Shown here: positions 6,657-27,566 of the stretch, piece after piece
Layout of the letters: each line of letters begins with the position of its first letter
Position numbering within the stretch: the stretch's first letter is position 1
Origin: an uncultured Nitrososphaerota archaeon
GTDB taxonomy: Archaea; Korarchaeota; Korarchaeia; Korarchaeales; Korarchaeaceae
Length of the DNA stretch: 32,000 nt
Reading direction: 5' to 3'
Assembly (NCBI GenBank): GCA_964480775.1
Contig: CAYZRF010000009.1
Location: 1-32,000 of the forward strand
The notes under the pieces: model-generated
Database searches by the model: none
What the model saw: only the letters and a program-made list of their open reading frames with translations
Told to the model about the DNA's origin: nothing
Program-made: the position numbers and the translations under genes

Positions 6657-7394
6657 CTACTCCCAATAAAGCAAGCTTTTCTTTCTACTAACTTTAATTT
6701 CTTTTGCCTCATCATAAGGAGTTGTAAACACCTCCACGATGTGTCTGGCTATCTTCTTTCCAATTCCTTTTACCTCTGCTAACTCCGCCAGATTTGCGTT
6801 TGCTACTCTTCTCAATGTTTTGAATCTCTCAATTATAGCTCTTGCCTTTACAATCCCGAGACCACGTATTGTACCAAGAACCTCAACTTGCTCATCTGCA
6901 AGCGTCTTACTCTTCTTTACTACTCTTAAACTAGGTTTAACCCCAGTTTCCATCTTTTTAGCAAGGAGATAAAGGGTTTTTGGTACAAGGTATTCGTCTG
7001 GAACCACTATCGTAGGAACTCCAGAAAGGGCTAGCTCGTTCTGTATTCCGAGGTAAACATTCCAAACTAAGCTTGGATCTCTTCCCATTGATCTAAACCT
7101 CCTCCACACCACTTTAGGATCTCCTGTTATCATTAGAGAGAAGGGCACCTCTTGGTGAGCCAAAGCGTCAAGTTGGTCGAAAAGCCTCTTAGATATCACG
7201 CTGTTCACTAGATCCAAAACGCTCTTTCTTTCGAGCAATAAAATGTGATCTCCCCCTTTCACCAAGAAGTCTCCCGCTTCTAACCATGAGATTTCTACTG
7301 TTACACCCATTTCTCTTATTTTTTCAGCCCATCCCTTTGACAGATTCTCCCTCTTGTCAACGAGTATTTTCATCGCTCTGTTTTCAATTACCAA
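6657..7394 (-). CDS. xpf: XPF/ERCC4-type structure-specific endonuclease, short form (nuclease domain + HhH2)
   Basis: 245 aa. The ERCC4 signature is GDF...LLLERKSVLDLVNSVISKRLFDQL. The C-terminus has tandem helix-hairpin-helix motifs (LGTIRGLGIVKA, LAEVKGIGKKIARHI). There is no helicase domain. Confidence 0.85.
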   Translation of the reverse strand: MVIENRAMKILVDKRENLSKGWAEKIREMGVTVEISWLEAGDFLVKGGDHILLLERKSVLDLVNSVISKRLFDQLDALAHQEVPFSLMITGDPKVVWRRFRSMGRDPSLVWNVYLGIQNELALSGVPTIVVPDEYLVPKTLYLLAKKMETGVKPSLRVVKKSKTLADEQVEVLGTIRGLGIVKARAIIERFKTLRRVANANLAELAEVKGIGKKIARHIVEVFTTPYDEAKEIKVSRKKSLLYWE

Positions 7395-12423: not shown

Positions 12424-14184
12424 TTAAATGATATCCCACTCTTTCAGGGTGTTGCTGAAGTGTTTTAGACCACGTTCAAAATACTCTTCTTCAAGGATAC
12501 CATGAGGTGTGGGAACCTCCAAGATCCTTCTTGGAGCCTTTAGTTCTGTTGGATCGAACCCCATTTGAATCTTAAGGGAATATCTCTGTTTGTATATGTC
12601 TCTTCCAAGTCTATGGAGTTCTTCAGGAGGAACTGGTATGCCTAAGGGGTCTAGTGCTTCCGACACCGTCTCGACATCGTATATGCCTCTCGCAAACAGA
12701 CAAATTACTAGGCTGTTGAGAACCATTCTCCAACTCTCCTCCTTGATCAATTTTTCGACTAGCTCTTCTGGAGGTGGAAGCTCACTGATTTTTTGATCAA
12801 GGGAGTATCCAGCATTGTCAAGATGACTATGCCTGCCTCCGACAAGAAAGCCGAGGTAAGCTGCGGGTCCTGTGTGATATCCGGGCATTTCATTCCCACC
12901 GAAGAAAAGTGCAAATTCCTCTCCTCCAAAACGTTTAGATGCATTCCTAACTCCTAAAGCCAACTCTCTATAGAACTCGTTTGGCTGTTCTACGACCATT
13001 TTTACGGCCTTAATATATGACTCATAGTTGCCCCATTTTAGTCTAAGGAGAGTTTTTCTCTCGGAAATCAGCCCCCTTTCAAGGGCTTCTGTAGCCCAAG
13101 CAAGGCAAACACCAGTGCTTATGGCGTCTAATCCAACTGACTCGACAAAATGCAGAAGCTTCAAGAAGTCCTCTCTATTTCCTATGCCTAACATGCTGCC
13201 CAGGGCGTATGCCAGCTCATAGTCATACGAGATGAATACAGTCTTGTAGAAGAAGGGTTCATGTGGGTAGGGTTCCCTTAACGCTGCAAGATGAATGCAC
13301 GCAACTGGGCATCCTGAACAAGCAATTCTTCTTCCTAAAACCTTTGAAGCCATCTCTTCTCCGCTTATGTTCTCAGCCTGCTCAAATCTGCCTGATTTAA
13401 GGTTCATAGTTGGTAAGGCACCAAGCTCATTTAACGGCAAGACATTCATCGTGGTTCCTAGTTCGTGGTACTTTTTCATCAACCCAGATCTAACGGCTTT
13501 CTCGAAGATCTTATCGTAAACTTTCCTGTAAGCAACCTTATCTTCTACCTTTAAGGCCTTCCTTCCCGAGATAACGATGGCCTTTAGTTTTTTAGAACCA
13601 AACACGGCTCCCAAGCCTAGTCTTCCGAAATGTCTGAAAGATTCTACCATTACTGATGCGTACCTAACCAGCTTTTCTCCTGCGGGACCTATCCTAAGAA
13701 TGCTTCTGTAACCCGCACTTGGCTCCCTTTCAGCAATCACTCTTCCAACTGTAAAACTGCTTGTCATTCCCCACAATGCACTTGCGTCCCTGAAGTGAAC
13801 CCTGTCCTCGTGAATTGCTAAGTATATGGGAGTTTCGCTAGCCCCTCTTATTACAATAGCCATGTAGCCTGCAAGCTTGATCGAAACGCTACTCCTTCCA
13901 CCCGCATACGATTCGCCTAAGTTCCCAGTAAGAGGACTTTTGAAGAGGGCAACAGTCTTGGATCCAAGAGGATACGCTGCATTGAAGGGGCCTACTGCGA
14001 GTATTATGGAATTCTCTGGACTCAAAGGATCGACTGACGTCATGTTCTCTTCTTTCAGTAGTTGAATTCCTAAACCGATCCCTCCAAGCCATTCCTCTAC
14101 TAAGTCATCTCTCTCTTCGACCCAGCTCGTTCTTCTGTTTAGATCTATGTACAGAACTTTTGAGAAAGGCTTCGGTTCGTACAT
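12424..14184 (-). CDS. aor: Tungsten/molybdopterin aldehyde:ferredoxin oxidoreductase family protein (AOR family)
   Basis: 586 aa. The AOR N-terminal domain reads ILAVGPFNAAYPLGSKTVALFKSPLTGNLGESYAGGR. The cluster/pterin region is RIACSGCPVACIH. The start codon abuts the upstream stop (TGAATG) and is preceded by GGAGGTGA. Confidence 0.9.
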   Translation of the reverse strand: MYEPKPFSKVLYIDLNRRTSWVEERDDLVEEWLGGIGLGIQLLKEENMTSVDPLSPENSIILAVGPFNAAYPLGSKTVALFKSPLTGNLGESYAGGRSSVSIKLAGYMAIVIRGASETPIYLAIHEDRVHFRDASALWGMTSSFTVGRVIAEREPSAGYRSILRIGPAGEKLVRYASVMVESFRHFGRLGLGAVFGSKKLKAIVISGRKALKVEDKVAYRKVYDKIFEKAVRSGLMKKYHELGTTMNVLPLNELGALPTMNLKSGRFEQAENISGEEMASKVLGRRIACSGCPVACIHLAALREPYPHEPFFYKTVFISYDYELAYALGSMLGIGNREDFLKLLHFVESVGLDAISTGVCLAWATEALERGLISERKTLLRLKWGNYESYIKAVKMVVEQPNEFYRELALGVRNASKRFGGEEFALFFGGNEMPGYHTGPAAYLGFLVGGRHSHLDNAGYSLDQKISELPPPEELVEKLIKEESWRMVLNSLVICLFARGIYDVETVSEALDPLGIPVPPEELHRLGRDIYKQRYSLKIQMGFDPTELKAPRRILEVPTPHGILEEEYFERGLKHFSNTLKEWDII

Positions 14185-14619
14185 TCATCTCACCTCCTCA
14201 AGAGCTATCACATTGTAAGGGCAGTAGTTCGCGCAATAGCCACAGTACACGCAGATTATGGGCTTGTTTACCTCTTCATCCCAGAAGATTGCTCCAAAGG
14301 GACATGCTTCAACACAATAACCGCAAGCTATGCATTTTTCGGGCTTAAGGATGACGCCTCCCCCTTTTCTAGGCACGAGAGCATCTTCAGGACATACTTT
14401 TGCACATGGAGGCTCTGAGCAGGCTCTGCAAACCACTACGATAAAGCCTTTCTCCATGCCTCCGGCACTTTTAACGTGTATCGCTGACTTTCCATAACCA
14501 ACTTCAGCGAATCTTCTAGTGCAGGCAAGCATACATGAAGCGCAGCCTACGCATAAATCAGAATCTAGAACTGAGAGGCGTTTCGTCAAATATATCCCAA
14601 GTTTGATGTAAATCCTCAC
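14185..14619 (-). CDS. Polyferredoxin subunit with four [4Fe-4S]-type cysteine motifs (AorA-like electron-transfer subunit)
   Basis: 144 aa with 16 Cys arranged as CVGCASCMLAC, CRACSEPPCAKVCP, CIACGYCVEACP and CVYCGYCANYCP. It is translationally coupled to aor. GTG start; an alternative TTG lies 11 codons downstream. Confidence 0.85.
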   Translation of the reverse strand: MRIYIKLGIYLTKRLSVLDSDLCVGCASCMLACTRRFAEVGYGKSAIHVKSAGGMEKGFIVVVCRACSEPPCAKVCPEDALVPRKGGGVILKPEKCIACGYCVEACPFGAIFWDEEVNKPIICVYCGYCANYCPYNVIALEEVR

Positions 14620-15578: not shown

Positions 15579-16553
15579 CTAGAAAGACCTCGCTGCTTTC
15601 ATAAACGCGTGTATATTCTCCAGAGGTGCAAAATAGGGGACATCGCATCCTGTGCTTACTATTAAGTTTCTGAAATCAGACATTCGTTTCAACATGTCTC
15701 CAACTTCCGTCTCTACCACGCCTTGTGGTCTTGTAGCCAACTTCATAGGAGAGTAATTTCCGAACAGAATTACAGCTTCAGGAACTTTTTCGGCAGCAAC
15801 TCTAAGATCTATATTGTCATCAAAGCTCAGAATGTGCGCTCCTGTCTCTACCATATCTAAAAGCAGGTGATTTGCCCTGCCACATATGTGTAGAGCCCAA
15901 GTGGGCCCTACTTTCTCGATTATCCTCGAAATGTAGGGCTTGGAGAACCTTCTGAAGTCTTCATTTGAGATGGAACTTGACATGGGTTCTGCCAAGACCA
16001 AAAGGTCTGTGATGGGAGCTAGTTCCCTTGCATAGCTCAGAATAACATCTGTTGAAAAGGACATGATTTCATCCAAGAGATCGGGTTTTTTCCTAACCAT
16101 TCTCATCAATCTACCGAATCCAACAAGCTGGCCAGCAAGGGTAAAAGGTCCTGACACGTAGAACCCGACAAACGCGTTTCTTCTAAGTTTTTGCATTAGT
16201 TCAGCTGTTCTAATCATGAGAGGGAGCCTTCCGCTAGTTTTCGGATTGGGAACCTCTAATCCCTCAAGATCGGCGCTTGACTCTAGCTTCAAGTGCTCGA
16301 CCACAGTAGGGGCGCTGTTTTCCTTCATGGAAACTTTTACGCCAACTGATTCGGCTTCTACAGTTAGGTCCATGAGTGGAAATACTATATCAAGACCGAA
16401 TTCCTCAAAAGAAGCTTTCATAAGCTTCATATGGAGCTCTGGCTCTCCAAGACATTCGTTTGCCTTTCCATTTATTAACTTAAGGCTTGGATAAGCTACC
16501 AGCGGTGCTACTAACAACTTCTCGCCCGATAGGACCCGATCTACTATATCCAT
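15579..16553 (-). CDS. UroD-fold methylcobamide:thiol methyltransferase (MT2; MtaA/MtbA-like)
   Basis: 324 aa, uroporphyrinogen-decarboxylase-family fold pattern. The zinc/thiolate-activating triad is present: H-I-C at 15882..15890 (H222, C224) and C303 in STGCDVP (15645..15647). AGGAGGAGG lies 4 nt upstream of the ATG. The gene is 20 nt downstream of the MT1 gene. Confidence 0.8.
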   Translation of the reverse strand: MDIVDRVLSGEKLLVAPLVAYPSLKLINGKANECLGEPELHMKLMKASFEEFGLDIVFPLMDLTVEAESVGVKVSMKENSAPTVVEHLKLESSADLEGLEVPNPKTSGRLPLMIRTAELMQKLRRNAFVGFYVSGPFTLAGQLVGFGRLMRMVRKKPDLLDEIMSFSTDVILSYARELAPITDLLVLAEPMSSSISNEDFRRFSKPYISRIIEKVGPTWALHICGRANHLLLDMVETGAHILSFDDNIDLRVAAEKVPEAVILFGNYSPMKLATRPQGVVETEVGDMLKRMSDFRNLIVSTGCDVPYFAPLENIHAFMKAARSF

Positions 16554-16573
16554 GAAGCCTCCTCCTGATTAGA

Positions 16574-17953
16574 TTAAGGTTTACTTACGCCTAATTCCTC
16601 TAATTCCTTCCAAACCCTTTCATATATGGCGAGCCAGTCTGGAACTGGTTTAAGAGTTACCAGGTTAGTGAGCTCCTTAAAACTGCGTCCCTTTGGAGGA
16701 TCCCTTAACCTTCCCTCGTACTTTGGTAAGAGCTCCTTAACGACATAGTTAACATCGGAGAGCTTCATTCCGGCAGATGCTTTCAATATTTCTGCGCAGA
16801 ACTTATTCTCAAGCCCACTACAATAATTAGGATATTTACATGCAGCTGGTCTTGTTCCGATCACGATAGCAGCCCCAGATACTGCTTCGGCGAGGGAGAT
16901 GCAAGCTGTCTCATACAAGATCATATCAGTTCCTGGACCAGCCACCTGACTGGTTATTCCTAGAACCATTGAGCGGCTGTTTCTAGATTTGGCTTGATTA
17001 GCTACGCTCGTAGCCCAAAGAGCTTCCCTTCCGCAGTTTCCAAAGTATCTTCCATCTAATATTGTGCTCTCTATAACAGTTGGTTGCATTGATGCTGCCT
17101 GTAGGATGTGGGCTGCAATTGCGCCTAAGGCTGCCCCTTCAGGAGGGCCGAAATATCCACCTATAGTTGTCATGTGCCCTGCTTCAATTGAAGTACCTGT
17201 AATCAGGGCAACGGCTACTCTGTGCAATATCCTATGTGGTAGGGTGATGGGCTCAGGTATTAGACATATGGCAAGCGTGCACTCTGGCTCAAATCCCCCT
17301 GGTAGGAAACCTCCGAAGAAGCCATACTCTGTAGGTGCTCCTTCAACCCCAAACACAGGCATTCCAGGCCTTCCAGCCCTATGAAGGGCCTCTTTAACAA
17401 GCTTTGCCTCGTAAAATCCCGCCAGGGTCTCATAGGGCGTCCTTGATCTAACCTCCCTTCCGTGAAGCCTGTCTAGACAGGCACCTAGAAGCATGTCCAC
17501 AACCCTGTATTGGGCGATTGACTGACAGATTGGGACATAAAGCTCCTCTGAGACAGAGAGCCCTAGAGCAGACATGGCTGCTATAGGAGGACTCGGGTCC
17601 TCGGGCACCCTGACCTTGATAGTGATCCTATCCTTTCCCTTTCCCAATGAGACCTCGGATACTGCATTTTTTAGCGCTTCCTCTATCTCCTCTTCGGTGA
17701 ACTTGACAATTCTCTCAGTCTCAGGGCAGAACATTCCCAGCTCAACCGCAAGAGAGAAACCTGCCTCCCAGAACTCATCAGCTAAACTGAGATCCATGTT
17801 TATGGGATTGTTTGGATCGAACGTCCTCTCTAACCCGTGATCCTTTAATACCCTCATGGTTGTTCTGGGAACTAACTTGTAGTCCCACTCCTTTCTTGAG
17901 ATGGGAGGTCCTATTAGGGTCCTGTCCATAACCTCTAACAGCTTCGATACCAT
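16574..17953 (-). CDS. MtmB-family (monomethylamine methyltransferase-like) MT1 protein lacking a pyrrolysine codon
   Basis: 459 aa from ATG 17953, with GGAGGTGA at 17962..17969. The ORF track starts at GTG 17971 and gives 465 aa. The protein is colinear end to end with Methanosarcina MtmB as I recall it: KEWDYKL, CPETERIVKFTEEEIEEAL, HRAGRPGMPVFG, GGYFGPPEG, VAGPGTDMILYE, SGLENKF and KGRSFKELTNLVTLKP. There is no in-frame TAG. Confidence 0.8.
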   Translation of the reverse strand: MVSKLLEVMDRTLIGPPISRKEWDYKLVPRTTMRVLKDHGLERTFDPNNPINMDLSLADEFWEAGFSLAVELGMFCPETERIVKFTEEEIEEALKNAVSEVSLGKGKDRITIKVRVPEDPSPPIAAMSALGLSVSEELYVPICQSIAQYRVVDMLLGACLDRLHGREVRSRTPYETLAGFYEAKLVKEALHRAGRPGMPVFGVEGAPTEYGFFGGFLPGGFEPECTLAICLIPEPITLPHRILHRVAVALITGTSIEAGHMTTIGGYFGPPEGAALGAIAAHILQAASMQPTVIESTILDGRYFGNCGREALWATSVANQAKSRNSRSMVLGITSQVAGPGTDMILYETACISLAEAVSGAAIVIGTRPAACKYPNYCSGLENKFCAEILKASAGMKLSDVNYVVKELLPKYEGRLRDPPKGRSFKELTNLVTLKPVPDWLAIYERVWKELEELGVSKP

Positions 17954-17961
17954 TGAATTGG

Positions 17962-18651
17962 TCACCTCCACTCCCCAACTAGAACGGGCTTCTCAACCTC
18001 CTTTCCTCTTTCCTTCAATAGGTTACAGAGCTTTACAGCACCTTCCGCGTCCTTAGCCCATCCATCTGCCCCTATCTCCTTAGCCCACTCTGGATAGACT
18101 GCTGCTCCACCGACTATGACGTAATATTTGTCTCTGATTCCCATGTCCACTAGTCTCTGAATTACATCCCTCATGTAAAACATGGAAGGGCTCAATAGAC
18201 ACGAAATCGCAATGAAATCAGCCTCCGCCCTCTCAGCTTCCTCCACAAACTTCCTAGGTTCAACGTCAGATCCAAGGTCGAATACCTCATAGCCATTTGC
18301 CCTAAGCAAGGATGCTACTATGTTCTTCCCAATGTCGTGGATATCCCCGTAAATCGTCCCTATGACAACTTTTCCTTTCCTGAATTCCTGAGCTCTTTCA
18401 CTTAACTTTGGAATTATGATGTTTAAGGCTGCATAAGCTGTATCTGCTGCTAATACCAAATCAGGTAGGAATAGCTCTAACTTCTCGTATTTCTCCCCAA
18501 CTGTATCAAGGCCCTTCTTTAATCCCTCATTTATTATCTCTAGCGGGTCTATTCCTGCTTCAAGCGCTCTTTTAGTTGCTTCTTTTATGCCTTCTTCATC
18601 ACCATTAACAACCAAGTCTTTTAATCGATCTAGCAGTTCCTGCTTTCCCAT
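17962..18651 (-). CDS. Cobalamin-binding corrinoid protein (MtmC/MtbC/MtaC-like)
   Basis: 229 aa. It has an N-terminal helical cap domain and a C-terminal B12-binding Rossmann domain. The lower-ligand motif is D-I-H-D-I-G-K-N (18328..18345), followed by LG and GGA segments. Confidence 0.9.
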   Translation of the reverse strand: MGKQELLDRLKDLVVNGDEEGIKEATKRALEAGIDPLEIINEGLKKGLDTVGEKYEKLELFLPDLVLAADTAYAALNIIIPKLSERAQEFRKGKVVIGTIYGDIHDIGKNIVASLLRANGYEVFDLGSDVEPRKFVEEAERAEADFIAISCLLSPSMFYMRDVIQRLVDMGIRDKYYVIVGGAAVYPEWAKEIGADGWAKDAEGAVKLCNLLKERGKEVEKPVLVGEWR

Positions 18652-18670: not shown

Positions 18671-18684
18671 AAAAAATAAAAATA
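18671..18684 (-). promoter_or_regulatory. TATA-like A/T box upstream of the corrinoid methyltransferase operon
   Basis: The minus strand reads tatttttatttttt, centred about 27 nt upstream of ATG 18651. This is the only A/T-rich box in the 86-nt spacer after the upstream gene. Confidence 0.3.
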
Positions 18685-18737: not shown

Positions 18738-19409
18738 TTAGATAGTTGGAAGGTAAATGGACCCTATCAGATAGATTAATGTGGGTATTGCGACAATAAA
18801 AGTCGCTTTATAGTAAGATAGATTGTGTTCTTCCTTAACAGCTAGGACAGAGAGAGCCAGAAACCAGATTAACATTACCAAACCGAAGATCCTGTTTATG
18901 GCCATGCCTACCTCGGTTGGCTTAGTAGCCATCAAGTTCTTTAAGAACTCAGCTTTTTCAGCAGAACTCATACTTTCAATAGGGATATCAGGAATTTTTG
19001 GAGAATACAGAGCCATAGCTAGCAAATTTGATGCTGAAGAGAAAATTTGGGGGGTGCGACACCAACCAATAAGTTCTAAAAGCTTTTCAAATGTACCTGA
19101 TCCCTTTATAGCCTTAGCAATTAGGTGAAAAACTCCAGAGATTACGAACCAAGCTGTAAATGAGAAAATAAGGGTTCCATACACAAGTCGGATTCCAGAA
19201 AAGCCCTCTAATCCAACTTCGCTTGGATCAATTTGCATTATATCGAGAATTTTCATAACAGAGATGAAGGTTGCCAGCCCAGTCAGCAGACCTTGAGATA
19301 GAATTATGACAAATGGCCCCAGGAGAGAGAGTTTCCCTTCCTTCATTTCCTTCAAAGTTGGTACAGGTCTTAGGATGATGCCCTTGATTTTCACCAAGAT
19401 CCTCAGCAT
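18738..19409 (-). CDS. Yip1-like integral membrane protein (5 TM)
   Basis: 223 aa. A short soluble N-terminus (ILRPVPTLKEM) is followed by five hydrophobic segments, the layout of Yip1-domain proteins. The family assignment is tentative. Confidence 0.5.
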   Translation of the reverse strand: MLRILVKIKGIILRPVPTLKEMKEGKLSLLGPFVIILSQGLLTGLATFISVMKILDIMQIDPSEVGLEGFSGIRLVYGTLIFSFTAWFVISGVFHLIAKAIKGSGTFEKLLELIGWCRTPQIFSSASNLLAMALYSPKIPDIPIESMSSAEKAEFLKNLMATKPTEVGMAINRIFGLVMLIWFLALSVLAVKEEHNLSYYKATFIVAIPTLIYLIGSIYLPTI

Positions 19410-19510
19410 CTCTCATAGTGAGTGAGGGGTGCTATTAATGGTTGCTCTTCCAGACTCGTGAGGTGATAAATGTTTATTCTGATCAAAGCTGTCATTGAGA
19501 ACTCGTTAGG

Positions 19511-21514
19511 TTACGTTTGGTAAGGAGATTTTGAGGGTTTTTTGTTGTATGTTCTAAGTTCGATTGCAGTTGGTATTGAAAAGACAAAAGCTACCAAAGC
19601 CAGCCATCCAGAGATGTTTGATTCAACAATCTCTGCATTGAGAATTTTTTCCCACGAAATCTCATTTATTTGGCCGTCTTTCCCTATTTTGATCGTTGCT
19701 ACATTCTCATAAACTCTCTCTTGCCAAGTTCCCAAATGATACAACCAGATTTTGAGGGAAATTCCTCCCTCTGTTATCCCGCTGTGACGCATAACCTCCT
19801 CTAAACTCTCTACATAAATGTTTGAAACTATCTGATCAGATTCCACCTCCGATTCTCCTGAGGAAATTTCAACCACGTCTACGCTCAAAACCCAACGGAC
19901 TTTGATCTCATGGGCTTCATCTCGCTGTTTAACCCAAATCTCAATGCTTGAAGGCCTTCCAACTACCCTCAAATTTGAGGGCTCAGTCCTATGACAGCCG
20001 CAGGAATATTGAGGAAACTCCACGAAAGTTCCGTCCGGCCATCTAACAACCACTTGAGCTTTCCAGCTTGGAATTGAGAGAGAAAACCAAAGTATGGACA
20101 TACAAGTTAAGGCAAAGAGAATGATCGCTAGATAACGCTTGCCTTTTGACCATATAGCTGCTGATACTAAGACAAATGGGAAGCAAAAGAAGGCCTTTAG
20201 AGGATCCGATCTCGCCAAACAAAGCGAGGCTATTGCTCCCATCGAAAATATTAAGGTGAGACGGGAATTGAATGACCTAACTTTTTCTAAATCCAAGAAC
20301 GGAATAATTACTCCTGCCGCTCCTAGAGAAGCTCTAATCAGCACAGGAGTGTCGTAACTAGTTGCTAAGAAATATGTCCCCAGAGACAATAGCAAGATGC
20401 CTGATATCAGGTCAATAATAGTTACCTTTGTTCCTATCCATCTCTTCATTGTTCTTGACTTTAATCCTGCCCAAACGCTAAGTAATATGGCAATTAAAGG
20501 CGAGATGAATACAGAGTTGTAAAGAATGAGTGCTAGAAAGGCTCTAGTCTTATTAATGCCGACTAAGAATGAGGAAGCAAGAAGATAAGGTCCCATGGAG
20601 CAAGGAAGTAATGTAAAGCTAACCAAGGCTCCTAAGGTAATTGCCTCAACGGAGCTTGCAGAACCCTCAAAGACCTCAAATCTTCTAATAGTGATTTTTC
20701 TCAGAGGCTTAGGCAAAGGAGCCCTATGAATCCCTGATTGAAAGTTTCTCAACTCGAAAACGCCTAGAGCTATGAGGGCAGCACTGAAGAGGGGGATGAG
20801 GGTCCTCAGAAGGGAGGCAATGGTCAGGAGCCCCAGACCCAGAAGGAAGTAACATAGATAAACTGTGGCGATAAAGGCAACACCTGACCTAAGCGCTCTT
20901 CTCCTTCCACCAGAAGCCATAGAGAGGACCAAAAGGGTAGCAAATACCACGAAAGTGCAGGGGTTCACTGAATCCGCAGCCGCTAAAATAAAGAACTCTT
21001 TAAGCTCAAATTGAATTGAAGATGGCTTTGATTTGAAAATTTCCTCTAATCTCTTAACTTCTTCTCCTTCTAGATATCTTAGCTCATGTTCTTTGTAAGA
21101 AACTAACACAGATCCAGGACTTATCCTTCCTTCTAGTGAACTTAGGAATTCTTGGTCATGATAACCAGCCAAGATTGCCACAAGACTGTCCTGAGAAAAG
21201 ACTACAACTAAAGGAGCTGCTCGAACCCCTTGAGGAAAGGCAAGTTCATAGATCTCATCTACTATGGCGGCTATTTCAGCTCCTTCTGGACCAGATAACT
21301 CATAGAAAACAATTGATTCATTTCCGAATAGTTCTGATATGGTTTTAAGCTCCGACCCGCACTCAGAGCATCCAATTGTTCCGTATACAACAAAAGTCAA
21401 ATTAGGCTGTGCATAAATGGAAGCCAGTTGTGTTGAAAAAACCATGGCTATTAGCAAAGCAACTAAGATCTTCATCAAGATTAAGCTTGCGATCCTTCTT
21501 TTTTTGCCTTTCAA
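19511..21514 (-). CDS. Multidomain membrane thiol:disulfide oxidoreductase: thioredoxin-like CxxC domain + DsbD/CcdA transmembrane core + extra TM segments and a C-terminal extracytoplasmic domain
   Basis: 667 aa. The signal/anchor is followed by a CxxC motif (YGTIGCSECG). The two DsbD-core half-motifs are ADSVNPCTFVVF and FTLLPCSMGPY. About 3 further TM segments follow, then a soluble region of about 160 aa, then a final TM. TTG start; an alternative ATG at 21475 gives MKILVALL. Confidence 0.75.
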   Translation of the reverse strand: MKGKKRRIASLILMKILVALLIAMVFSTQLASIYAQPNLTFVVYGTIGCSECGSELKTISELFGNESIVFYELSGPEGAEIAAIVDEIYELAFPQGVRAAPLVVVFSQDSLVAILAGYHDQEFLSSLEGRISPGSVLVSYKEHELRYLEGEEVKRLEEIFKSKPSSIQFELKEFFILAAADSVNPCTFVVFATLLVLSMASGGRRRALRSGVAFIATVYLCYFLLGLGLLTIASLLRTLIPLFSAALIALGVFELRNFQSGIHRAPLPKPLRKITIRRFEVFEGSASSVEAITLGALVSFTLLPCSMGPYLLASSFLVGINKTRAFLALILYNSVFISPLIAILLSVWAGLKSRTMKRWIGTKVTIIDLISGILLLSLGTYFLATSYDTPVLIRASLGAAGVIIPFLDLEKVRSFNSRLTLIFSMGAIASLCLARSDPLKAFFCFPFVLVSAAIWSKGKRYLAIILFALTCMSILWFSLSIPSWKAQVVVRWPDGTFVEFPQYSCGCHRTEPSNLRVVGRPSSIEIWVKQRDEAHEIKVRWVLSVDVVEISSGESEVESDQIVSNIYVESLEEVMRHSGITEGGISLKIWLYHLGTWQERVYENVATIKIGKDGQINEISWEKILNAEIVESNISGWLALVAFVFSIPTAIELRTYNKKPSKSPYQT

Positions 21515-21637: not shown

Positions 21638-22456
21638 ATGTCTAGATTTGAAAGCTTTTACAAGCTATTTAACACAAAAAAGCCAATCATAGGAATGGTC
21701 CATCTGCCGCCTCTCCCAGGCTCACCCCGATACAACGGGGATATGGAAGGTTTGATCAAAAGGGCCGTCTCAGATGCTAGGGCTCTTGAGGATGGGGGGG
21801 TAAATGGACTGATTGTGGAGAACTATGGCGATAAGCCTTTTAGAAGAGATAAAGTCGGACCCGAAACAGTTTCTGCAATGACTTTAGTTCTGAAGAGCGT
21901 GTTAGAGGCAACATCTCTGCCAGTCGGAGTTAATGTGCTTAGAAGCGATTGTGTCTCTGCTCTAGCTATAGCTTCAGTAACTGGAGCAAAGTTCATCAGG
22001 TGTAATGTTTTTACCGATACCTTGGTCACGGATCAAGGCATTATTCAGCCCTGTGCATGGGAAGTCTTGAACTTAAGGGCGTTTCTCAAATCTAAGGTCA
22101 TGGTGTTCGCTGATGTTCTTAGCAAACATGCTAGGCCCTTAGTCCACCTGACAATAGAGGAATCAGCAAGAGCTGCCGCCTATAGAGGAATGGCCGACGC
22201 CATAATAGTAACTGGAACGGAGACCGGGGTTAGTCCGGATCCTGAGAGGGTTAAGAGGATTAAGGAGGCTGTTTCGGATGTTCCGCTCCTAATTGGAAGT
22301 GGTCTCAACCCAGATAACGCTGTAACACTGTTAAAACATGCAGATGGGGCTATCGTTGGCACATATTTCAAGGAAAAAGGTTTTGTAGAAAATAAAGTCG
22401 ACACGGAGAGGGTAAGAACCCTCATAAAAACCATAAAGATGCTCGATCATAGGTGA
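21638..22456 (+). CDS. BtpA/SgcQ-family TIM-barrel protein
   Basis: 272 aa. The family-typical N-terminus is KPIIGMVHLPPLPGSPRY. GLIVENYGD and the C-terminal GADGAIVGT-like segment (HADGAIVGTYFK) are also present. Confidence 0.8.
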   Translation: MSRFESFYKLFNTKKPIIGMVHLPPLPGSPRYNGDMEGLIKRAVSDARALEDGGVNGLIVENYGDKPFRRDKVGPETVSAMTLVLKSVLEATSLPVGVNVLRSDCVSALAIASVTGAKFIRCNVFTDTLVTDQGIIQPCAWEVLNLRAFLKSKVMVFADVLSKHARPLVHLTIEESARAAAYRGMADAIIVTGTETGVSPDPERVKRIKEAVSDVPLLIGSGLNPDNAVTLLKHADGAIVGTYFKEKGFVENKVDTERVRTLIKTIKMLDHR

Positions 22457-22460
22457 GTGA

Positions 22461-23816
22461 ATGGATCTCCTGAATGGAGACTGGTGGAAAGCTGGCGCTG
22501 GCCCTGGAGGTTTGTGTCTAAATGGTCTAAAGGCCATCATTACTATGGAACCCTCAAATCCGATTATTTGGAATGGTCACATTTGTGTCGAGGATGGATT
22601 GATAAAGAGCATAGGTGTTGGTAAGGGACCAAGGGCAGAGGTAGAAATAGAGACTCATGGGAAGGTAGCTATTCCTGGCATGATAGATCTCCACTCCCAT
22701 TCTACTCAATCTTTTCTAAGGGGTGTATTCGATGAGATATGCCTCATGGAGTGGTTAAACGAAACCGATGTATCCTATTCGAGAGCAAAAAGAGAATTGC
22801 TTGAAATATCATCTACGATCTCTTTTCTCGAAAGATTGAAGGGAGGAGTCACCACAGTAGTGGATATGGAGCCCTTTCCCGAGATAATTGCTCGAGCTTC
22901 TGAAAAGATTGGTTTGAGGACCGAAATCTCCGTTCTGATGGCTGATACCCCAGAACTTCCTAGTCAAGAGGTTTCATCGCTAGAACAGGAGTTGAAAAAG
23001 GCTAAAAGTGCTATACAAAAGTTTCAGAGAAATCAAAAGTTATGGGTATCTCTAGCTCCCGTAGGTTTTCCTGCAGCCTCAAATGAACTTTTTAAGAGAT
23101 CTGCAGAACTCGCAAAGGAAAAAGGACTAAGGCTCCATACTCATGTTGCTGAGAGCAGAATAAACGCAAACCTATGCAAGAGAAGAAATAGGAGGAGCGA
23201 AATTGAGCTTCTAGAGGATCTTGGATTCTTAGGTCCAAAAACTCAACTTGCCCATGCTATCTGGATAAGCGAGACGGATATCGAGACTCTTTCAAAATAT
23301 AGAACTGCAGTCGTTCATTGCCCTTCAAGCAACCTGAAGCTCGCAGCAGGCGTGTCGAAAGTACCTGAGATGATAAAAATGGGAGTTAAAGTTGGACTTG
23401 GGCTTGATGGAGCAGCTAGCAACTCCAGCCAAGATATGTTCCAAGAGATGAGAATCGCATCAACATTACATAAAGGGGTTAAAGGAAATCCAAAAGCCGT
23501 GAAAGCCGAAGAAGCACTTAATATGACGACTGTACAAGCTGCAAAAATACTTAGACTTGAAAAAACGTTAGGAAAGATATCTCCTGGCTATTGGGCTGAT
23601 TTTTCTCTAATTGATGTGTCACAACCCAGGTACTTACCAATAGAGGCCATAAGGTCGCACATAGTTTATTCAGCCCAAGCTTCCGATGTTTTCGGTGTAA
23701 TAGTTGGGGGAGAAGTTCTTGTTTGGGAAAGAACGCACACCAGTTTTGACGAAACTTCCCTCTTAAAGAGAGCAGGTGAACTTTTCTCAGAGTTCCTGAA
23801 CGGTGTGCTCCTTTGA
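22461..23816 (+). CDS. Metal-dependent amidohydrolase of the MtaD/SsnA/chlorohydrolase (nucleobase/nucleoside deaminase-like) group
   Basis: 451 aa. Metal ligands: IPGMIDLHSHS (HxH), RLHTHVAES, LAHAIW and GLDGAASN. It starts 4 nt after the btpA stop. Confidence 0.85.
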   Translation: MDLLNGDWWKAGAGPGGLCLNGLKAIITMEPSNPIIWNGHICVEDGLIKSIGVGKGPRAEVEIETHGKVAIPGMIDLHSHSTQSFLRGVFDEICLMEWLNETDVSYSRAKRELLEISSTISFLERLKGGVTTVVDMEPFPEIIARASEKIGLRTEISVLMADTPELPSQEVSSLEQELKKAKSAIQKFQRNQKLWVSLAPVGFPAASNELFKRSAELAKEKGLRLHTHVAESRINANLCKRRNRRSEIELLEDLGFLGPKTQLAHAIWISETDIETLSKYRTAVVHCPSSNLKLAAGVSKVPEMIKMGVKVGLGLDGAASNSSQDMFQEMRIASTLHKGVKGNPKAVKAEEALNMTTVQAAKILRLEKTLGKISPGYWADFSLIDVSQPRYLPIEAIRSHIVYSAQASDVFGVIVGGEVLVWERTHTSFDETSLLKRAGELFSEFLNGVLL

Positions 23817-24925
23817 TCTCAAGGAAAAAGTTTACGTCACTGTACATTTCGACTTTTCTATTGACAACAGGCGTGGGAGCAACTATTCCAGCCCTAGCTC
23901 AAAAGGTCTACCTAATATCTTCATCAGACGAACTTGTCTCGCTAGTGATTGGAACTTGGGGTCTCTCTTACACAATATTGAGCGCTCTTTCTGGTTATTT
24001 AATTAACTTTTTTGGAAGAAAAGGGGTTTCTTTCCTTGGTTTGCTAGGTGCGTCTGTTTCTGGTATTATAATGGAGTTATCTAACTCTGTATCTGCGCTT
24101 GCCTCATCAAGATTCCTTACAGGGGCTTCTGAAGCTCTTGTCCTTAATTCTTTCATCACTATAACCTCTTTTGAATCCTTAGAAAAGAGAGAAGGCTGTC
24201 TTGGTCTACTGTATGCTTCTATGGGTCTTGGATTGTTCTCGGGACCTTTTTTCTACTCTTACTTCTTGGGATCAGATCCCAAAAAAGGCTTTTTCTTGTT
24301 GATTCTTCTTCCTCTTATGTCAATACTCCTTCTTCCATCATATCAAGAGGGATTTTCAATGGATAGGTCGTCTCACCCTAACTTAAGAAAAGTAGCTATC
24401 CCTTTAACTGTGTCTCTACTAATAGGGGCATTGGAAGGATATTTTCAAGGGTCGGGAGTGAGCCTTGTTAGAGCTTGGGGGCATGATCCCTCGGATTTTG
24501 GAAAGATTTTGTCCCTCTATTTTGCGTTTAGCATTGTCGTCCAAGGCACGATGCCCTTCTTGACCAAAGTTTTTAGGGCGGATAGCTGGGCAGTTAGCTT
24601 TTCTATATGGACAATCTTCACATCGAGCCTGCTCATCGAGTTAAGGTCCAAAAAATTTCCTTTCTTATTCTCTGGCTTATTTGGGGCTTCTATTGCCGTT
24701 TGTAGCGTAGCTTTAACTTCATTATTATCTGAATTAACTACAGAGAAGGAAAGAGCATTTGCTATAGGGATGTCGAGTTCAACTTATTCACTGGGCTACT
24801 TTATTTCTCCTATTTTCGTCTTTATATTCAAAAATCAGGTTTTTGGAGTGTTCTTTATGTCTATACTACTTTTTCTCTTAGCAGCAATCATTAGATTTCC
24901 GTTAAGACCTTCTAACGAGATTTAA
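23813..24925 (+). CDS. MFS-type transporter
   Basis: 370 aa with 10-12 hydrophobic segments. The TTG start overlaps the amidohydrolase stop (TTGA). A motif-A-like loop is GYLINFFGRKG. Confidence 0.7.
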   Translation: MISRKKFTSLYISTFLLTTGVGATIPALAQKVYLISSSDELVSLVIGTWGLSYTILSALSGYLINFFGRKGVSFLGLLGASVSGIIMELSNSVSALASSRFLTGASEALVLNSFITITSFESLEKREGCLGLLYASMGLGLFSGPFFYSYFLGSDPKKGFFLLILLPLMSILLLPSYQEGFSMDRSSHPNLRKVAIPLTVSLLIGALEGYFQGSGVSLVRAWGHDPSDFGKILSLYFAFSIVVQGTMPFLTKVFRADSWAVSFSIWTIFTSSLLIELRSKKFPFLFSGLFGASIAVCSVALTSLLSELTTEKERAFAIGMSSSTYSLGYFISPIFVFIFKNQVFGVFFMSILLFLLAAIIRFPLRPSNEI

Positions 24926-25736
24926 GAAATTTCCGAATTACTTCTGCGGCCTCGTCAACCGTCAAGAACTTTTTTGGGAATTTCCCAACCTTGAGGTTTA
25001 GCTCCACAACCTGTGGAGGTCTTATGAAAGCCTTTCGCAAAGTCTCATAGTCATATAAGACTTCTTCTACCGATCCATCCTTCAAGATCCTACCATCTGC
25101 CATCAAAATAACTCTTTTAGCAGTTCTGGCAACGAATCTCATGTCATGAGTTATTACTACAACAGTTTTACCTTCTTCATTGAGTCTTATGCATAGATCG
25201 CTTAGAACCTTTCTTCCAACATGATCTTGACCTGTTGTTGGTTCGTCTAAAACGAACACCTCAGGATTCATCGACAATATTGAGGCAACCGTTAGAAGCT
25301 TCCTCTTTCCGAAATCTAAATCATAAGGATGCATTTCTTCAGTTCCTTCCAATCCAACAACCTTCAAAGCCTCTTTTACTCTTCTATCCACCTCTTCCTC
25401 ACTTAAGTCCAAGTTTCTAGGACCATATGCAACTTCTTCGTAAACAGTACTCATAAATATCTGGTGAGCTGGGTTTTGGAACACATATCCGACCTTCGCT
25501 ACTATTTTATGGGTTGGGGTCTCTTTAGTGTCCATTCCTGCAACAACAACTCTACCCTTCGTAGGTTTTAAGAGTCCATTGAAATGTTTCGCCAAAGTTG
25601 TCTTTCCTCCACCATTCTGGCCTATCAAAGCAAGGATCTCTCCAGGATGGATCTCTAGGTTAATCTCTTTTAACGCAACGACTTCTGGACTGTATTCGAA
25701 CCAAACGTCCTCAACCCTAATTATTGGTTCAGTCAT
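24912..25736 (-). CDS. ECF transporter ATPase subunit (EcfA2-like) with a degenerate ABC signature
   Basis: 274 aa. Walker A is GQNGGGKTT, the Q-loop VFQNP, Walker B VFVLDEPTTGQD and the H-loop ITHDM. The position of LSGGQ reads LDFGK (25305..25319). The start overlaps the upstream stop (TAATG). Confidence 0.9.
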   Translation of the reverse strand: MTEPIIRVEDVWFEYSPEVVALKEINLEIHPGEILALIGQNGGGKTTLAKHFNGLLKPTKGRVVVAGMDTKETPTHKIVAKVGYVFQNPAHQIFMSTVYEEVAYGPRNLDLSEEEVDRRVKEALKVVGLEGTEEMHPYDLDFGKRKLLTVASILSMNPEVFVLDEPTTGQDHVGRKVLSDLCIRLNEEGKTVVVITHDMRFVARTAKRVILMADGRILKDGSVEEVLYDYETLRKAFIRPPQVVELNLKVGKFPKKFLTVDEAAEVIRKFLKSR

Positions 25737-26590
25737 TAACTTAACGCCTCCTTATAGAGATCTATTGCTTCATCTAGCGTTATTGGGTAATCTTCTCTTG
25801 ATACCCCCAACTCATTTCTGAGAAGGTGCGTGAGTTCAGTTACCGAAGGCGGATCTACCCCTATCTCCTTAAGTTTCTCTACGCTTGACAAAACTCTCTT
25901 TCCCTCACCTTTTAATACCATTTCCCCATCATATAGCGCTATAATCTCATCTGCAAATGTTGCAAGTTCCTCTATCTCATGCTCAGCGACTACTATCGTT
26001 TGACCTCCAGCAGCAAGTTCCTTAACAGTTTCGAAAACCTCAAACTTTCCTATGGGATCTAGTTGGGCAGTTGGTTCATCAAGTACCAGTATCTCGGGTC
26101 TTACTGCTAAAACGGTTGCTATGGCTAGCCTTTGTTGCTGTCCTCCAGAGAGTTCGTAAGGTGATCTTCCCTCCAGACCTTTTAATCCAACCGTTTCTAT
26201 AGCTTCTTTGACCCTTTTATCAATCTCTTCTTTAGGAAATCCGAGCATGGCAAGACCAAAAGCAACTTCTTCCTCTAATGTAGTTGCAACTCCCGATAGC
26301 TGATCTAGTGGATCCTGAAATACGATTCCTACCTTCGTCGAGAGCTCCGCTATGGTGTGTTTAAGGGTATCCATTCCAGCGACGATAACTTTGCCAGACA
26401 TTCTGCCGCCAAAGAACTGAGGCACAATTCCGTTTAGAGAAAGGCATAAAGTTGTCTTTCCAGCTCCGTTTGGACCTATTATCCCTAAAACTCCTCCTCT
26501 CTTAACTTTGAAGGAGATGTGCTTAAGCACATTCTCCCTCGTAGGGTAGGAATAAGTGACATCTTCAACAATGACCGGATACTCTTCCAA
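25736..26590 (-). CDS. ECF transporter ATPase subunit (EcfA1-like)
   Basis: 284 aa. Walker A is GPNGAGKTT, the Q-loop VFQDP, the signature is a canonical LSGGQQQRL, Walker B is ILVLDEPTAQLD and the H-loop is AEHE. Confidence 0.9.
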   Translation of the reverse strand: MEEYPVIVEDVTYSYPTRENVLKHISFKVKRGGVLGIIGPNGAGKTTLCLSLNGIVPQFFGGRMSGKVIVAGMDTLKHTIAELSTKVGIVFQDPLDQLSGVATTLEEEVAFGLAMLGFPKEEIDKRVKEAIETVGLKGLEGRSPYELSGGQQQRLAIATVLAVRPEILVLDEPTAQLDPIGKFEVFETVKELAAGGQTIVVAEHEIEELATFADEIIALYDGEMVLKGEGKRVLSSVEKLKEIGVDPPSVTELTHLLRNELGVSREDYPITLDEAIDLYKEALS

Positions 26591-26613
26591 TCTAATCGCC
26601 TCTTCCCATAAAA

Positions 26614-27564
26614 CTATCTCCCATAAACAACTCTGGAAACTAGGAGATCAATGAAGGCCTTACCATCAAGGTCAACGCAGACATTGGCATTCGCAGGTCT
26701 CTTAAAGGATTCCGGAAGCCATTCTCTAAGATCTGCCAGAGTTTCGCCGCGCGTTAAAGTACCGCAGACTTCAACATCTACATGAAGCCTCTTAAACTTG
26801 AAGATTTCTGGCTTTATCATATAGCTTAGGGCCATTGGATCGTGCATAGGAACTGGTTCTATAAGATAGACGAATCTTCTCAGCATCTTTTGTATTAACT
26901 CTCCCGTCTTAGTTCCTGCCTTGCCTATCTCTTCATAGAGGGATTTGCTTATCCCCGCATCTGGCCTCATGGTAACATCAAGACCGAAGGCGTAGATCTC
27001 TGCTCCTGAATTAAAGACTATTTTCGCTGCCAAAGGATCTGTAGCAATGTTGAACTCGGCTCTTGGACTTTCATTTCCATATCCCCAAGGAGTTGTTGCA
27101 TAGGCTCCACCCATTATAACGATAGAAGACAGTTTATTGGCAATATTGGGTTCAAGAAGCAATGCCATTGCAACATTGCTAAGAGGTCCAGTTGCTACGA
27201 TACTTATCTCCTTTGGACCACTGTCCATAACTTTCTCTCTTATGAAGTCAACAGCATGGCCCTTCGCAGGTTTCATACGGGGTTCTGGGAGATTAACGTC
27301 TCCAAGTCCATCTTGGCCGTGAACAAATTCAGCTGTCCTAAGTTCTCCAAACATAGGTCCTTTCATACCAGCAAATACTGGGACTTTCTCTAATCCCATA
27401 AATTCAAGCATTTTGAGGGCATTTTTCGTGGTTAATTCAAGAGGAACATTTCCTCCTACCGTTGTGATTCCTAAAATCTCCAATTCTGGAGATCTGCAAG
27501 CAAGCATTATAGCGATAGCATCGTCTATTCCAGGATCCATGTCCAGAATTACTTTCTTACCCAT
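26614..27564 (-). CDS. Nucleoside hydrolase (inosine-uridine preferring, IUNH family)
   Basis: 316 aa. The N-terminal Ca-binding fingerprint is ILDMDPGIDDAIAI (DxDxxxDD). ATGPLSN and the overall length are typical of the family. Confidence 0.9.
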   Translation of the reverse strand: MGKKVILDMDPGIDDAIAIMLACRSPELEILGITTVGGNVPLELTTKNALKMLEFMGLEKVPVFAGMKGPMFGELRTAEFVHGQDGLGDVNLPEPRMKPAKGHAVDFIREKVMDSGPKEISIVATGPLSNVAMALLLEPNIANKLSSIVIMGGAYATTPWGYGNESPRAEFNIATDPLAAKIVFNSGAEIYAFGLDVTMRPDAGISKSLYEEIGKAGTKTGELIQKMLRRFVYLIEPVPMHDPMALSYMIKPEIFKFKRLHVDVEVCGTLTRGETLADLREWLPESFKRPANANVCVDLDGKAFIDLLVSRVVYGR

Positions 27565-27566
27565 AT

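Follow-up and report, generated by a model that had tools for sequence, protein, structure and literature searches.

A pyrrolysine-free MtmB-family corrinoid methyltransferase operon in a korarchaeotal lineage and its possible role in the demethylation of purine-like bases

Which methyl donor can be used by a homologue of the monomethylamine methyltransferase MtmB that does without pyrrolysine (Pyl)? The question is raised by three adjacent genes of an uncultured korarchaeotal archaeon, found at positions 15579-18651 of a 32,000-nt stretch of contig CAYZRF010000009.1 (assembly GCA_964480775.1; this whole stretch is called the window hereafter). They encode a corrinoid protein (C), an MtmB-family methyltransferase (MT1, B) and a UroD-fold zinc-site methyltransferase (MT2, A). 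This is a genuine, selected, Pyl-free MtmB-based corrinoid methyltransferase operon and, as a kind, it is already known, Pyl-free MtmB homologues having been recognised for years. That its products form an MT1-corrinoid-MT2 relay is, in our judgement, highly probable. The reading we lean to as a whole, with moderate confidence, is that this three-gene, corrinoid-dependent relay demethylates an N-methylated purine-like substrate and hands the methyl group to a thiol.

The three ORFs (open reading frames) lie on the minus strand, are co-directional and follow one another in the order C-B-A. All of them were found where the original prediction of a three-gene unit had placed them, and the junctions read in the sequence as it had described: a 10-nt overlap (or a restart coupled to a Shine-Dalgarno sequence) between C and B, a 20-nt spacer between B and A with the Shine-Dalgarno-like AGGAGGAGG (16558-16566, minus strand), and an A/T-rich TATA-like box, TATTTTTATTTTTT (18671-18684, minus strand), centred about 26 nt upstream of the ATG of the corrinoid gene. 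As far as can be read from the letters, TATTTTTATTTTTT is a putative promoter that would give a leaderless or very-short-leader transcript for all three genes. The first gene (17962-18651, minus strand) encodes a 229-aa corrinoid (cobamide-binding) protein of the base-off/His-on type, with a cap and a Rossmann domain (Pfam B12-binding_2, 79.5 bits, and B12-binding, 95.7 bits). The DIHDIG sequence noted in it earlier is indeed its DxHxxG motif (residues 103-108, 18328-18345); SxL is found at residues 150-152 (18196-18204) and GG at 181-182 (within 18100-18114). The protein scores 204.7 bits against TIGR02370 pyl_corrinoid, slightly under the cut-off of 215.3.

MT1 (16574-17971, minus strand) is a TIM-barrel protein of 465 aa when read from GTG 17971, the start that gives the 10-nt overlap. 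GTG 17965 would give 463 aa and a 4-nt GTGA overlap, and is the choice of the gene callers in sister contigs; ATG 17953 would give 459 aa, in line with the ~460 aa of its homologues. The protein spans positions 4-449 of the 450 of the Pfam MtmB profile (PF05369, 268.8 bits, cut-off 25) and aligns by residues 14-462 with residues 12-456 of Methanosarcina barkeri MtmB (1L2Q/1NTH, E=1.2e-54), so that the predicted colinearity with MtmB holds over the full length. Identity to M. barkeri MtmB is 27%, and no NCBIfam equivalog model claims MT1. Where M. barkeri MtmB has its UAG-encoded Pyl202, MT1 has a TTT codon (17351-17353, minus strand) for Phe207 (465-aa numbering): the Pyl of GMGV-X-GPE corresponds to the phenylalanine of GMPV-F-GVE, on which the HMMER alignment to 1L2Q and a MAFFT alignment of 119 sequences concur. 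Phe207 lies inside GRPGMPVFG (17348-17374), of which the GRPGM..G block is conserved; phenylalanine is kept in the relatives P0001-P0003, and P0004 has tyrosine. A scan of the MT1 frame found no in-frame TAG, which, with TTT at the Pyl site, agrees with the uninterrupted, Pyl-free homologue first described. We considered a TAG hidden by a sequencing error and rejected it, the codon being TTT, the frame holding no TAG and the same residue recurring in independent assemblies. Neither tRNA genes nor pyl genes were detected in the 32-kb window, where TAG terminates 6 of 29 genes (21%), that of MT2 included. Organisms in which TAG is not read as pyrrolysine typically have such a share of TAG stops (comparison figures in PMC12180501). 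Since TAG ends these genes, the host does not decode it as Pyl.

MT2 (15579-16553, minus strand, 324 aa, stop codon TAG) matches Pfam URO-D with 192.9 bits. Its best solved structure is MtaA (4AY7, E=7e-29), on whose zinc ligands the LHICG and GC sequences of MT2 fall. The predicted ligands His222 and Cys224 (15882-15890) and Cys303 (15645-15647) are invariant in 122/122 aligned relatives, and this conservation and the 4AY7 alignment bear out the HxC...C zinc site that had been proposed. The protein stays below the cut-off of every NCBIfam MtaA/MtbA/CmuA model, equivalogs included (149.6 bits against TIGR01463 mtaA_cmuA, cut-off 235.4), and its candidate role is that of a methylcobamide:acceptor methyltransferase. 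Because its nearest relatives (47-48% identity) sit in modules of the form EamA-MT2-Bmp-ABC-RACo-C-MtmB or adjoin an adenine deaminase, the MT2 subfamily belongs to the same functional neighbourhood as the modules built on MtmB homologues. An MT2 gene within the operon is restricted to the lineage of the window and a few others (L061 and some Bacillota; L numbers denote the loci of the comparative set introduced below).

The operon and its context are conserved in L001, a 116-kb contig (ENA) of an almost identical strain, and in a sister species (L056, L057), and with the same chromosomal context in strain and sister species the arrangement is not a matter of chance. The ratios of non-synonymous to synonymous substitution rates (dN/dS) against L056 are 0.09 for the corrinoid protein, 0.06 for MT1 and 0.17 for MT2; all three genes are thus under purifying selection and are kept by it. 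The sister contigs were assembled from metagenomes of the Guaymas Basin and of hydrothermal vents. Proteins that share 90% or more identity with MT1 and MT2 belong to metagenome-assembled genomes (MAGs) labelled 'Thermoproteota archaeon / Candidatus Korarchaeota archaeon' by NCBI, in keeping with the TACK-like host outside Methanosarcinales that had been expected. The closest GTDB relatives of MT1 (62-64%) are from hot-spring Caldarchaeales ('Ca. Terraquivivens'), Nitrososphaeria and one 'Methanomethylicia' MAG. The window also encodes a short-form XPF nuclease (6657-7394; ERCC4 and HhH2, no helicase domain) and a Roadblock/LC7 protein (2864-3259). Short-form XPF is typical of TACK archaea, and both proteins fit a host of this type.

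Some features of these loci stand apart from the question of function. Identity between the window and L056 is 97% for MT1, 94% for the corrinoid protein and 79% for MT2, and dS is unequal too (0.71 against 0.28); MT2 may have been exchanged, or may evolve under a different regime. Between MT2 and the TIM gene, L056 (11077-11669) and L057 (2332-2924) carry a VapBC pair (PIN and VapB antitoxin) that is not present in the window or L001. Directly upstream of the MT2 homologue closest to that of the window, L053 (294-6825) and L054 (2-6338) hold HdrA-, FlpD/MvhD-, HdrC- and HdrB-like (CCG) genes, a CooT-like small gene and an EamA permease gene, and these Hdr-like genes hint at thiol/disulfide chemistry around the acceptor. 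In L032, two CobW-type metallochaperone genes come after MT2.

Families, motifs, junctions and selection together support the MT1-corrinoid-MT2 module that the original prediction had put forward, and a course of reaction can be proposed for it. MT1, judging by its family, would bind an N-methylated substrate and transfer the methyl group to the Co(I) of the His-on corrinoid protein. The His-Cys-Cys zinc site of MT2 would then move it from methyl-Co(III) to a thiol, for which coenzyme M, sulfide or methanethiol, or some other thiol are candidates. Cofactor oxidised to Co(II) would be reactivated by an ATP-dependent activase of the RACo type encoded elsewhere in the genome. With phenylalanine in place of Pyl, MT1 cannot activate methylamine through a Pyl adduct, and its substrate must therefore carry its own activated N-methyl group. 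Quaternary amines are intrinsically activated donors of this sort; some methylated nucleobases and nucleosides, such as m7G, m1A and m3C, also have a positively charged methylated nitrogen.

What is known of the family narrows the choice in part. The prediction that no Pyl-free MtmB protein had an assigned substrate has been overtaken, for in 2026 a non-Pyl MtmB homologue, MtqB of Methanococcoides methylutens Q3c, was assigned tetramethylammonium and choline, with which it methylates cob(I)alamin, and monomethylamine supports only traces of activity (PMC13044021). The other non-Pyl MtmBs of that study's tree of 1,061 sequences are of unknown function according to its authors (PMC13044021), and MAG studies list Pyl-free homologues simply as 'MtmB' (e.g. 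PMC10321748). Nor are such proteins rare, as had been implied. An exhaustive search with a deep-branching query gave 919 representatives at 50% identity with E<=1e-3, and at E<=1e-30 the family still comprises 202 such clusters; nearly all representatives are full-length and therefore Pyl-free. The residue in the Pyl column is hypervariable across this huge family, which argues for many different substrates.

We placed MT1 in a neighbour-joining tree of 158 members that includes Pyl-MtmB and a Pyl-free homologue of Methanohalobium evestigatum, and does not include the MtqB sequence. MT1 falls in a terminal clade of 7-9 representatives. The Pyl site holds Phe or Tyr in the subclade of the window, His in a large sister clade of Caldarchaeales and Nitrososphaerota, and Trp, Phe or Gln just outside. 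The Methanohalobium homologue, 25% identical to MT1, branches beside the Pyl clade, and the most recent common ancestor of MT1 with either of them spans 152-158 of the 158 leaves. MT1 would therefore seem to belong to a clade not yet characterised and far from the single family member that has been, MtqB being compared here by its description and through proxy homologues. Two candidates for the place of MtqB were tried and rejected: the Methanohalobium protein P0505 as its orthologue, having no adjacent corrinoid gene, and P0401, the representative nearest to the Pyl clade, which proved to be of a Methanomassiliicoccales type.

It is the neighbourhoods of the relatives that point to a class of substrates. 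We assembled 56 loci around MT1 and MT2 homologues, clustered all their ORFs without prior annotation, and collapsed the MT1 genes at 70% identity into 30 lineages; many contigs are short, so that all counts are lower bounds. The commonest neighbours were the corrinoid protein (32 of 56 loci), Bmp binding proteins (29) and BPD_transp_2 (Bmp-ABC) permeases (26), followed by COG0402 amidohydrolases (22), a double ABC ATPase (15), UroD MT2 (14), RACo (12), MtaB-family proteins (9), aldehyde:ferredoxin oxidoreductases (AOR; 8) and xanthine-dehydrogenase-like (XDH) molybdoenzymes (7). A Bmp gene lies within 8 kb in 17 of the 30 lineages and within 3 kb in 12, where chance would put one within 3 kb in ~2% of lineages (our own estimate from a handful of Bmp genes per genome, not a computed control). 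Within 8 kb there is an amidohydrolase in 14/30 lineages, an XDH-like gene in 6/30 and a UroD gene in 7/30, the C-B pair being mostly found without UroD. Arrangements differ between phyla, Bmp-amidohydrolase-amidohydrolase-C-B-A in Bacillota and C-B-cyclase-MarR-amidohydrolase-Bmp in Chloroflexota, and this argues for repeated, independent coupling of MtmB homologues with these partners. Single genomes of Hadarchaeota and Hecatella have many paralogues, each with its own Bmp protein and/or amidohydrolase. In the nearest non-self relatives of the window (74-75%), C-B stands between two AtzT-type Bmp-ABC transporters, with amidohydrolases and AOR nearby and no MT2, and Bmp and/or amidohydrolase context is present throughout the nearest relatives L050 and L058-61. 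Purine-type context was lacking at two homologues from distant clades, of Methanohalobium and Thorarchaeota, which served as negative controls. Within the set, no correlation of an aromatic Pyl-site residue with Bmp context is evident; Bmp-linked paralogues also have Thr, Ile, Gly or Asn.

The partners themselves are of purine type. The recurrent amidohydrolases belong to the group of TRZ/ATZ, SsnA and guanine, 8-oxoguanine and 5'-deoxyadenosine deaminases, none of them at an equivalog cut-off, and one is guanine-deaminase-like (320 bits). True adenine deaminases, with the Adenine_deam_C domain, immediately precede C-B in L061 and neighbour the MT2 homologue of L055. All five Bmp partners that we tested (5/5), the two proteins that flank C-B in the nearest relatives among them, match AtzT (6PI5) with E values from 1e-28 to 2e-62. 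AtzT is the top match for four of the five and, for the L008 partner, is outranked only by 7X0R 'Lbp'; 3S99 is next below AtzT for every partner, and the nucleoside binder TmpC reaches ~1e-8. AtzT co-purifies with guanine, its native ligand (K_D 110 nM), and also takes adenine (2.5 uM) but not GTP; the 3S99 structure contains adenine (PMC6834077). When one bacterial Bmp partner was compared with AtzT residue by residue, the aromatic sandwich was kept (Tyr45 replaced by Trp, Trp194 retained) and the residues that hydrogen-bond guanine were changed (Glu165 to Ser, Asn218 to Gln, Asn220 to Ser); such a site would suit a flat heterocycle other than plain guanine. Other neighbours are an allantoinase/dihydropyrimidinase-like enzyme (L050) and OTCase-family proteins (L050, L055, L058), and purine-biosynthesis genes flank L052.

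Individual loci show further arrangements. The most complete module of the set (L061:35-15248) runs from an ABC ATPase, two permeases, Bmp and adenine deaminase through C, an MtmB homologue with Trp at the Pyl site and UroD MT2 to a second corrinoid protein, RACo, an MtrH homologue and a second UroD protein. The MtrH homologue suggests that in this organism the methyl group goes to a pterin carrier. Together with the HdrABC-like genes of L053/54, the MtrH homologue and second corrinoid protein of L061 may mean that the fate of the methyl group differs among the relatives. In the all-His sister clade (Caldarchaeales/'Ca. Terraquivivens'/Nitrososphaerota; L002-L007, L009, L010, L013, L052), an MtaB-family gene of full length (Pfam MtaB, 550 bits) starts 0-20 nt after C-B in place of MT2, and a divergent RACo gene precedes C-B (e.g. 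L052:5454-10742); two MT1-type enzymes there share one corrinoid protein, with no MT2 nearby. Two Hadarchaeota MAGs (L011-L028, L045-L049) have at least 10 MtmB homologues each, often in tandem (three in a row in L015), and Ca. Hecatella orcuttiae JdFR-11 (L008, L014, L021, L025, L029) has at least five. One gene match in L020 spans 2,064 nt and two partial matches overlap in L046, which may reflect insertions or frameshifts. In the Sporobacter MAGs L034 and L044 (gut/environmental Oscillospiraceae), an 852-aa XDH-type molybdoenzyme with Fer2 and MoCoBD domains (L034:2584-5142, L044:2566-5124) and two amidohydrolases lie directly upstream of C-B-A.

This context leads us to suggest, tentatively, that the substrate is scavenged from degraded nucleic acids and is a purine-type base with a methyl group, or else a near relative among the N-heterocycles. 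Once demethylated, the ring would be open to nucleobase deaminases and to purine fermentation downstream. The substrate that the original prediction had left wholly open is in this way narrowed, though only as far as so tentative a proposal can narrow it. The genes of the window are in line with it: two TRZ/ATZ amidohydrolases, a nucleoside hydrolase, two nucleoside phosphorylases and a ribokinase. It is possible, if doubtful, that this whole branch of MtmB proteins, which spans the Thermoproteota lineage of the window, Caldarchaeales, Bathyarchaeia/Hecatella, Hadarchaeota, Chloroflexota and Bacillota, consists of methylpurine (N-methylated nucleobase):corrinoid methyltransferases. The cross-phylum tie of the clade to purine-base transporters and nucleobase deaminases is new and does not appear in the literature we searched: a search for any link of MtmB homologues with purines, caffeine, methylguanine or methyladenine returned nothing relevant to such a link, its sole relevant match being a preprint on the anaerobic N-demethylation of caffeine that names no enzyme, and a paper on an 'mlp' methyltransferase cluster makes no mention of MtmB.

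Several considerations weigh against the purine proposal. For the members of the clade the substrate is suggested by gene context, and the neighbourhood could instead reflect shared regulation or a general island for the scavenging of nitrogen compounds. The context of the window itself is looser than that of its relatives, with no Bmp protein, adenine deaminase, XDH or activase, and its amidohydrolases share ~27-34% identity with those found beside B elsewhere, so that their orthology is putative. The Pyl-site residue varies widely in the Bmp-associated branch, whose substrates are probably diverse, and the substrate of the window enzyme is therefore not to be read off from its relatives. Neutral N-methylpurines are poor methyl donors unless protonated or quaternised. 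We know of no proven acceptor for the UroD-type MT2 of non-methanogens, and the MtrH homologue of L061 suggests a pterin route in place of a thiol. Finally, quaternary amines, not purines, are the substrates of the one non-Pyl MtmB characterised so far (PMC13044021).

A quaternary-amine methyltransferase like MtqB, acting on choline, tetramethylammonium or another small quaternary amine beside unrelated nucleobase genes, is the strongest of the other explanations, and still an unlikely one. So far MtqB alone among Pyl-free MtmB homologues has been characterised (PMC13044021). It too is encoded after its corrinoid gene, in the order C then B; besides, an aromatic side chain where Pyl would stand (Phe here; Trp, Tyr or His in neighbouring clades) would suit cation-pi binding of a quaternary nitrogen. 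However, in the tree MT1 is at one end and both the Pyl clade and the Methanosarcinaceae-type homologue, to which it is 25-27% identical, are at the other; neither the window nor the 56 loci hold a BCCT or other betaine/choline-type transporter or a choline- or ethanolamine-utilisation gene; and the partners that recur are binding proteins of the purine-base type and nucleobase deaminases. Among classes of substrate, we thus rank a purine-like N-methyl heterocycle first, as a tentative choice, a small quaternary amine second, as an unlikely one, and other or unrelated compounds third, as unlikely at best.

The purine context could be real and yet concern something else, namely cobamide lower ligands and cofactor remodelling, or nitrogen scavenging, with another methylated compound as the substrate of MT1. 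Adenine, 2-methyladenine and guanine are all lower ligands of cobamides, the literature on corrinoids and methyladenine concerns purinyl cobamides, corrinoid methyltransferase systems need a supply of cobamide, and the islands are metabolically mixed, with AOR, OTCase and HdrABC-like genes also recurring. We regard this explanation as rather improbable, for it accounts neither for the separate Bmp protein or amidohydrolase adjacent to each paralogue within one Hadarchaeota or Hecatella genome nor for catabolic deaminases and XDH-like enzymes as recurrent partners, and the distant MtmB clades also need cobamide, yet do not have the context.

A relay run in reverse, in which the UroD protein would take a methyl group from a methylated thiol (methanethiol, dimethyl sulfide or methylmercaptopropionate, as in MtsA/MtpA-type enzymes) and the MtmB-like protein would methylate a nitrogen acceptor for biosynthesis or detoxification, seems to us very improbable. 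MtsA-type UroD-fold enzymes work in both directions, the habitat of the host is sulfidic hydrothermal sediment, and MT2, which diverges faster than MT1 (79% vs 97%), may be the part that determines specificity. On the other hand, C-B lacks a UroD gene in most relatives and keeps company with importers and catabolic deaminases, which fits a substrate-facing B, and all characterised proteins of the MtmB/MttB/MtbB type donate the methyl group to the corrinoid. To a true monomethylamine methyltransferase working without pyrrolysine we give still less credence: the Pfam match, the MAG annotation 'monomethylamine:corrinoid methyltransferase' and the trace activity of MtqB (PMC13044021) are set against a phenylalanine at the Pyl202 position that cannot form the methylammonium adduct, an identity of 27% with no NCBIfam equivalog, and a Pyl column whose hypervariability across the family argues for many substrates. 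A decaying, non-functional remnant, which the want of an adjoining activase or dedicated transporter in the window might suggest, is scarcely credible given dN/dS of 0.06-0.17, intact frames, conserved catalytic motifs and synteny in three genomes.

The surroundings of the operon complete the picture. As the original prediction had stated, Pfam scans and searches of the 32 kb found no RamA-type activase, pyl or mcr gene. A tblastn search with two RACo proteins as queries, like the Pfam scan, found no RACo activase in the window, where targeted searches likewise found no RACo/RamA, MtrH, MtaB, Bmp, BPD permease or EamA, and neither adenine deaminase nor XDH was found there. The system had been called complete: its three relay genes are all present, but the reductive activase is not in the window, though RACo adjoins C-B in relatives, and may be encoded elsewhere in the genome. 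It had also been said that the window holds no substrate transporter, and here the sequence tells otherwise. At a distance of 3.8 kb from the corrinoid gene, and divergent from it, is an operon (21638-24925, plus strand; Pfam and NCBIfam) of a BtpA/SgcQ-family protein (21638-22456), a TRZ/ATZ-SsnA-type amidohydrolase (22461-23816) and a major facilitator superfamily (MFS) transporter (23813-24925), which is kept beside C-B-A in L001 and L056 and is possibly linked to it in function. A nucleoside-catabolism island follows (24912-32000; Pfam and NCBIfam), with an ECF transporter 6 kb away from the module; the link of either transporter to the module is putative.

Within this island, the nucleoside hydrolase gene (26614-27564, Pfam) sits between the genes for the ECF ATPases (A/A', 24912-26590, Pfam) and that for the T component (27567-28415, Pfam), and the S component (28459-29049) is of the CD3073 family, by a weak score; the transporter thus encoded over 24912-29049 points to riboside uptake. 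Next come a nucleoside phosphorylase (29154-30044, Pfam/NCBIfam), a bona fide ribokinase (30083-31021; NCBIfam, 372 bits against a cut-off of 300) and a second TRZ/ATZ-type amidohydrolase that starts at 31233, 12.6 kb away, and runs off the window; a further nucleoside phosphorylase is found at 4599-5348. On the other side, two genes downstream of the operon, an AOR-family protein (12424-14184, minus strand) is encoded with its 4Fe-4S ferredoxin (14185-14619, minus strand; both by Pfam). AOR occurs near MtmB homologues in 5/30 lineages; these archaea have AORs in multiple copies, which leaves its relevance uncertain. The gene of a Yip1-domain membrane protein (223 aa) lies immediately upstream of the operon and on its strand, and beside it that of a 667-aa multi-pass membrane protein with no Pfam match and an N-terminal CSEC (CxxC) motif (18738-21514 for the two); both are conserved in L001 and L056.

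The matter has some bearing on how metagenomes are read, since studies count Pyl-free MtmB homologues as evidence of methylamine use when only one member of the family has a known substrate. If the purine proposal is true, many calls of 'methylamine utilisation' in Bathyarchaeia, Caldarchaeales, Hadarchaeota and Chloroflexota are wrong, and what they record is an undescribed anaerobic, cobamide-dependent demethylation of bases from nucleic-acid necromass or, in gut bacteria, of dietary methylxanthines. Every paralogue would then have a purine-type ABC importer and a deaminase of its own, with the methyl group going to a thiol or pterin and the ring to purine fermentation. This would amount to a new anaerobic sink for modified nucleobases, and to a source of methyl groups for thiols and C1 carriers in the carbon and nitrogen cycling of sediments. 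The association across phyla yields a specific and testable hypothesis on the substrate, for which the C-B-A tandem, with all three catalytic genes together, is a convenient construct to address both the methyl donor and the acceptor of MT2.

It remains to place the operon among the systems already described. A parallel in context is that of AtzT and the Brucella Bmp protein 3S99 with TRZ/ATZ amidohydrolases: the partners that recur beside this MtmB branch are of the same groups, and the window has two TRZ/ATZ amidohydrolases of its own. Unlike in those systems, they are context genes of the relatives and not members of the window's operon, and the window holds no such transporter. With MtaA/MtbA (4AY7), MT2 shares the UroD fold, the His-x-Cys...Cys ligands and a gene beside that of the corrinoid protein; it differs in being at most 48% identical to relatives outside its own genus, which are from Bathyarchaeia and uncultured bacteria and not from methanogens. 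The Pyl-free MttB superfamily (MtgB for glycine betaine, MtpB for proline betaine, MtcB for carnitine) is likewise a larger Pyl-free radiation of a Pyl-dependent family, acting on substrates with an already activated nitrogen and with corrinoid partners of the MtxC type; against MtgC models the corrinoid protein of the window scores 200 bits, below the cut-off. In contrast, that superfamily is PF06253 and ours PF05369, and its bacterial MT2 is usually a pterin-binding protein of the MtgA/MtqA type that delivers to tetrahydrofolate, not a zinc UroD-fold one.

With MtmB/MtmC/MtbA of M. barkeri (1L2Q, 1NTH), the operon has in common the Pfam family, a TIM barrel colinear throughout (E=1e-54), the GRPGM block before the active-site residue, and the His-on corrinoid and zinc MT2 partners. 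It departs from that archetype in having Phe (TTT) for Pyl202 (UAG), in an identity of 27%, and in a host where TAG is an ordinary stop, the window being without pyl, RamA and mcr. Close in design, too, is the MtqB/MtqC/MtqA(MtbA) system of strain Q3c (PMC13044021), which also combines a Pyl-free MtmB-family MT1 of ~459 aa, a corrinoid protein of ~216-229 aa directly before it in the order C then B, and a three-component relay with a UroD-fold MT2. However, MtqB is reported to lie next to Pyl-MtmB in the tree, with conserved Met/Cys and aromatic residues around the ligand, and by that description the clade of the window is distant from it. The host of MtqB belongs to Methanosarcinales and that of the window is of a Thermoproteota/Korarchaeota type; MT2 is encoded in the operon here and elsewhere in the genome in Q3c; and the gene context of the window's clade is of a purine type, not a quaternary-amine one.

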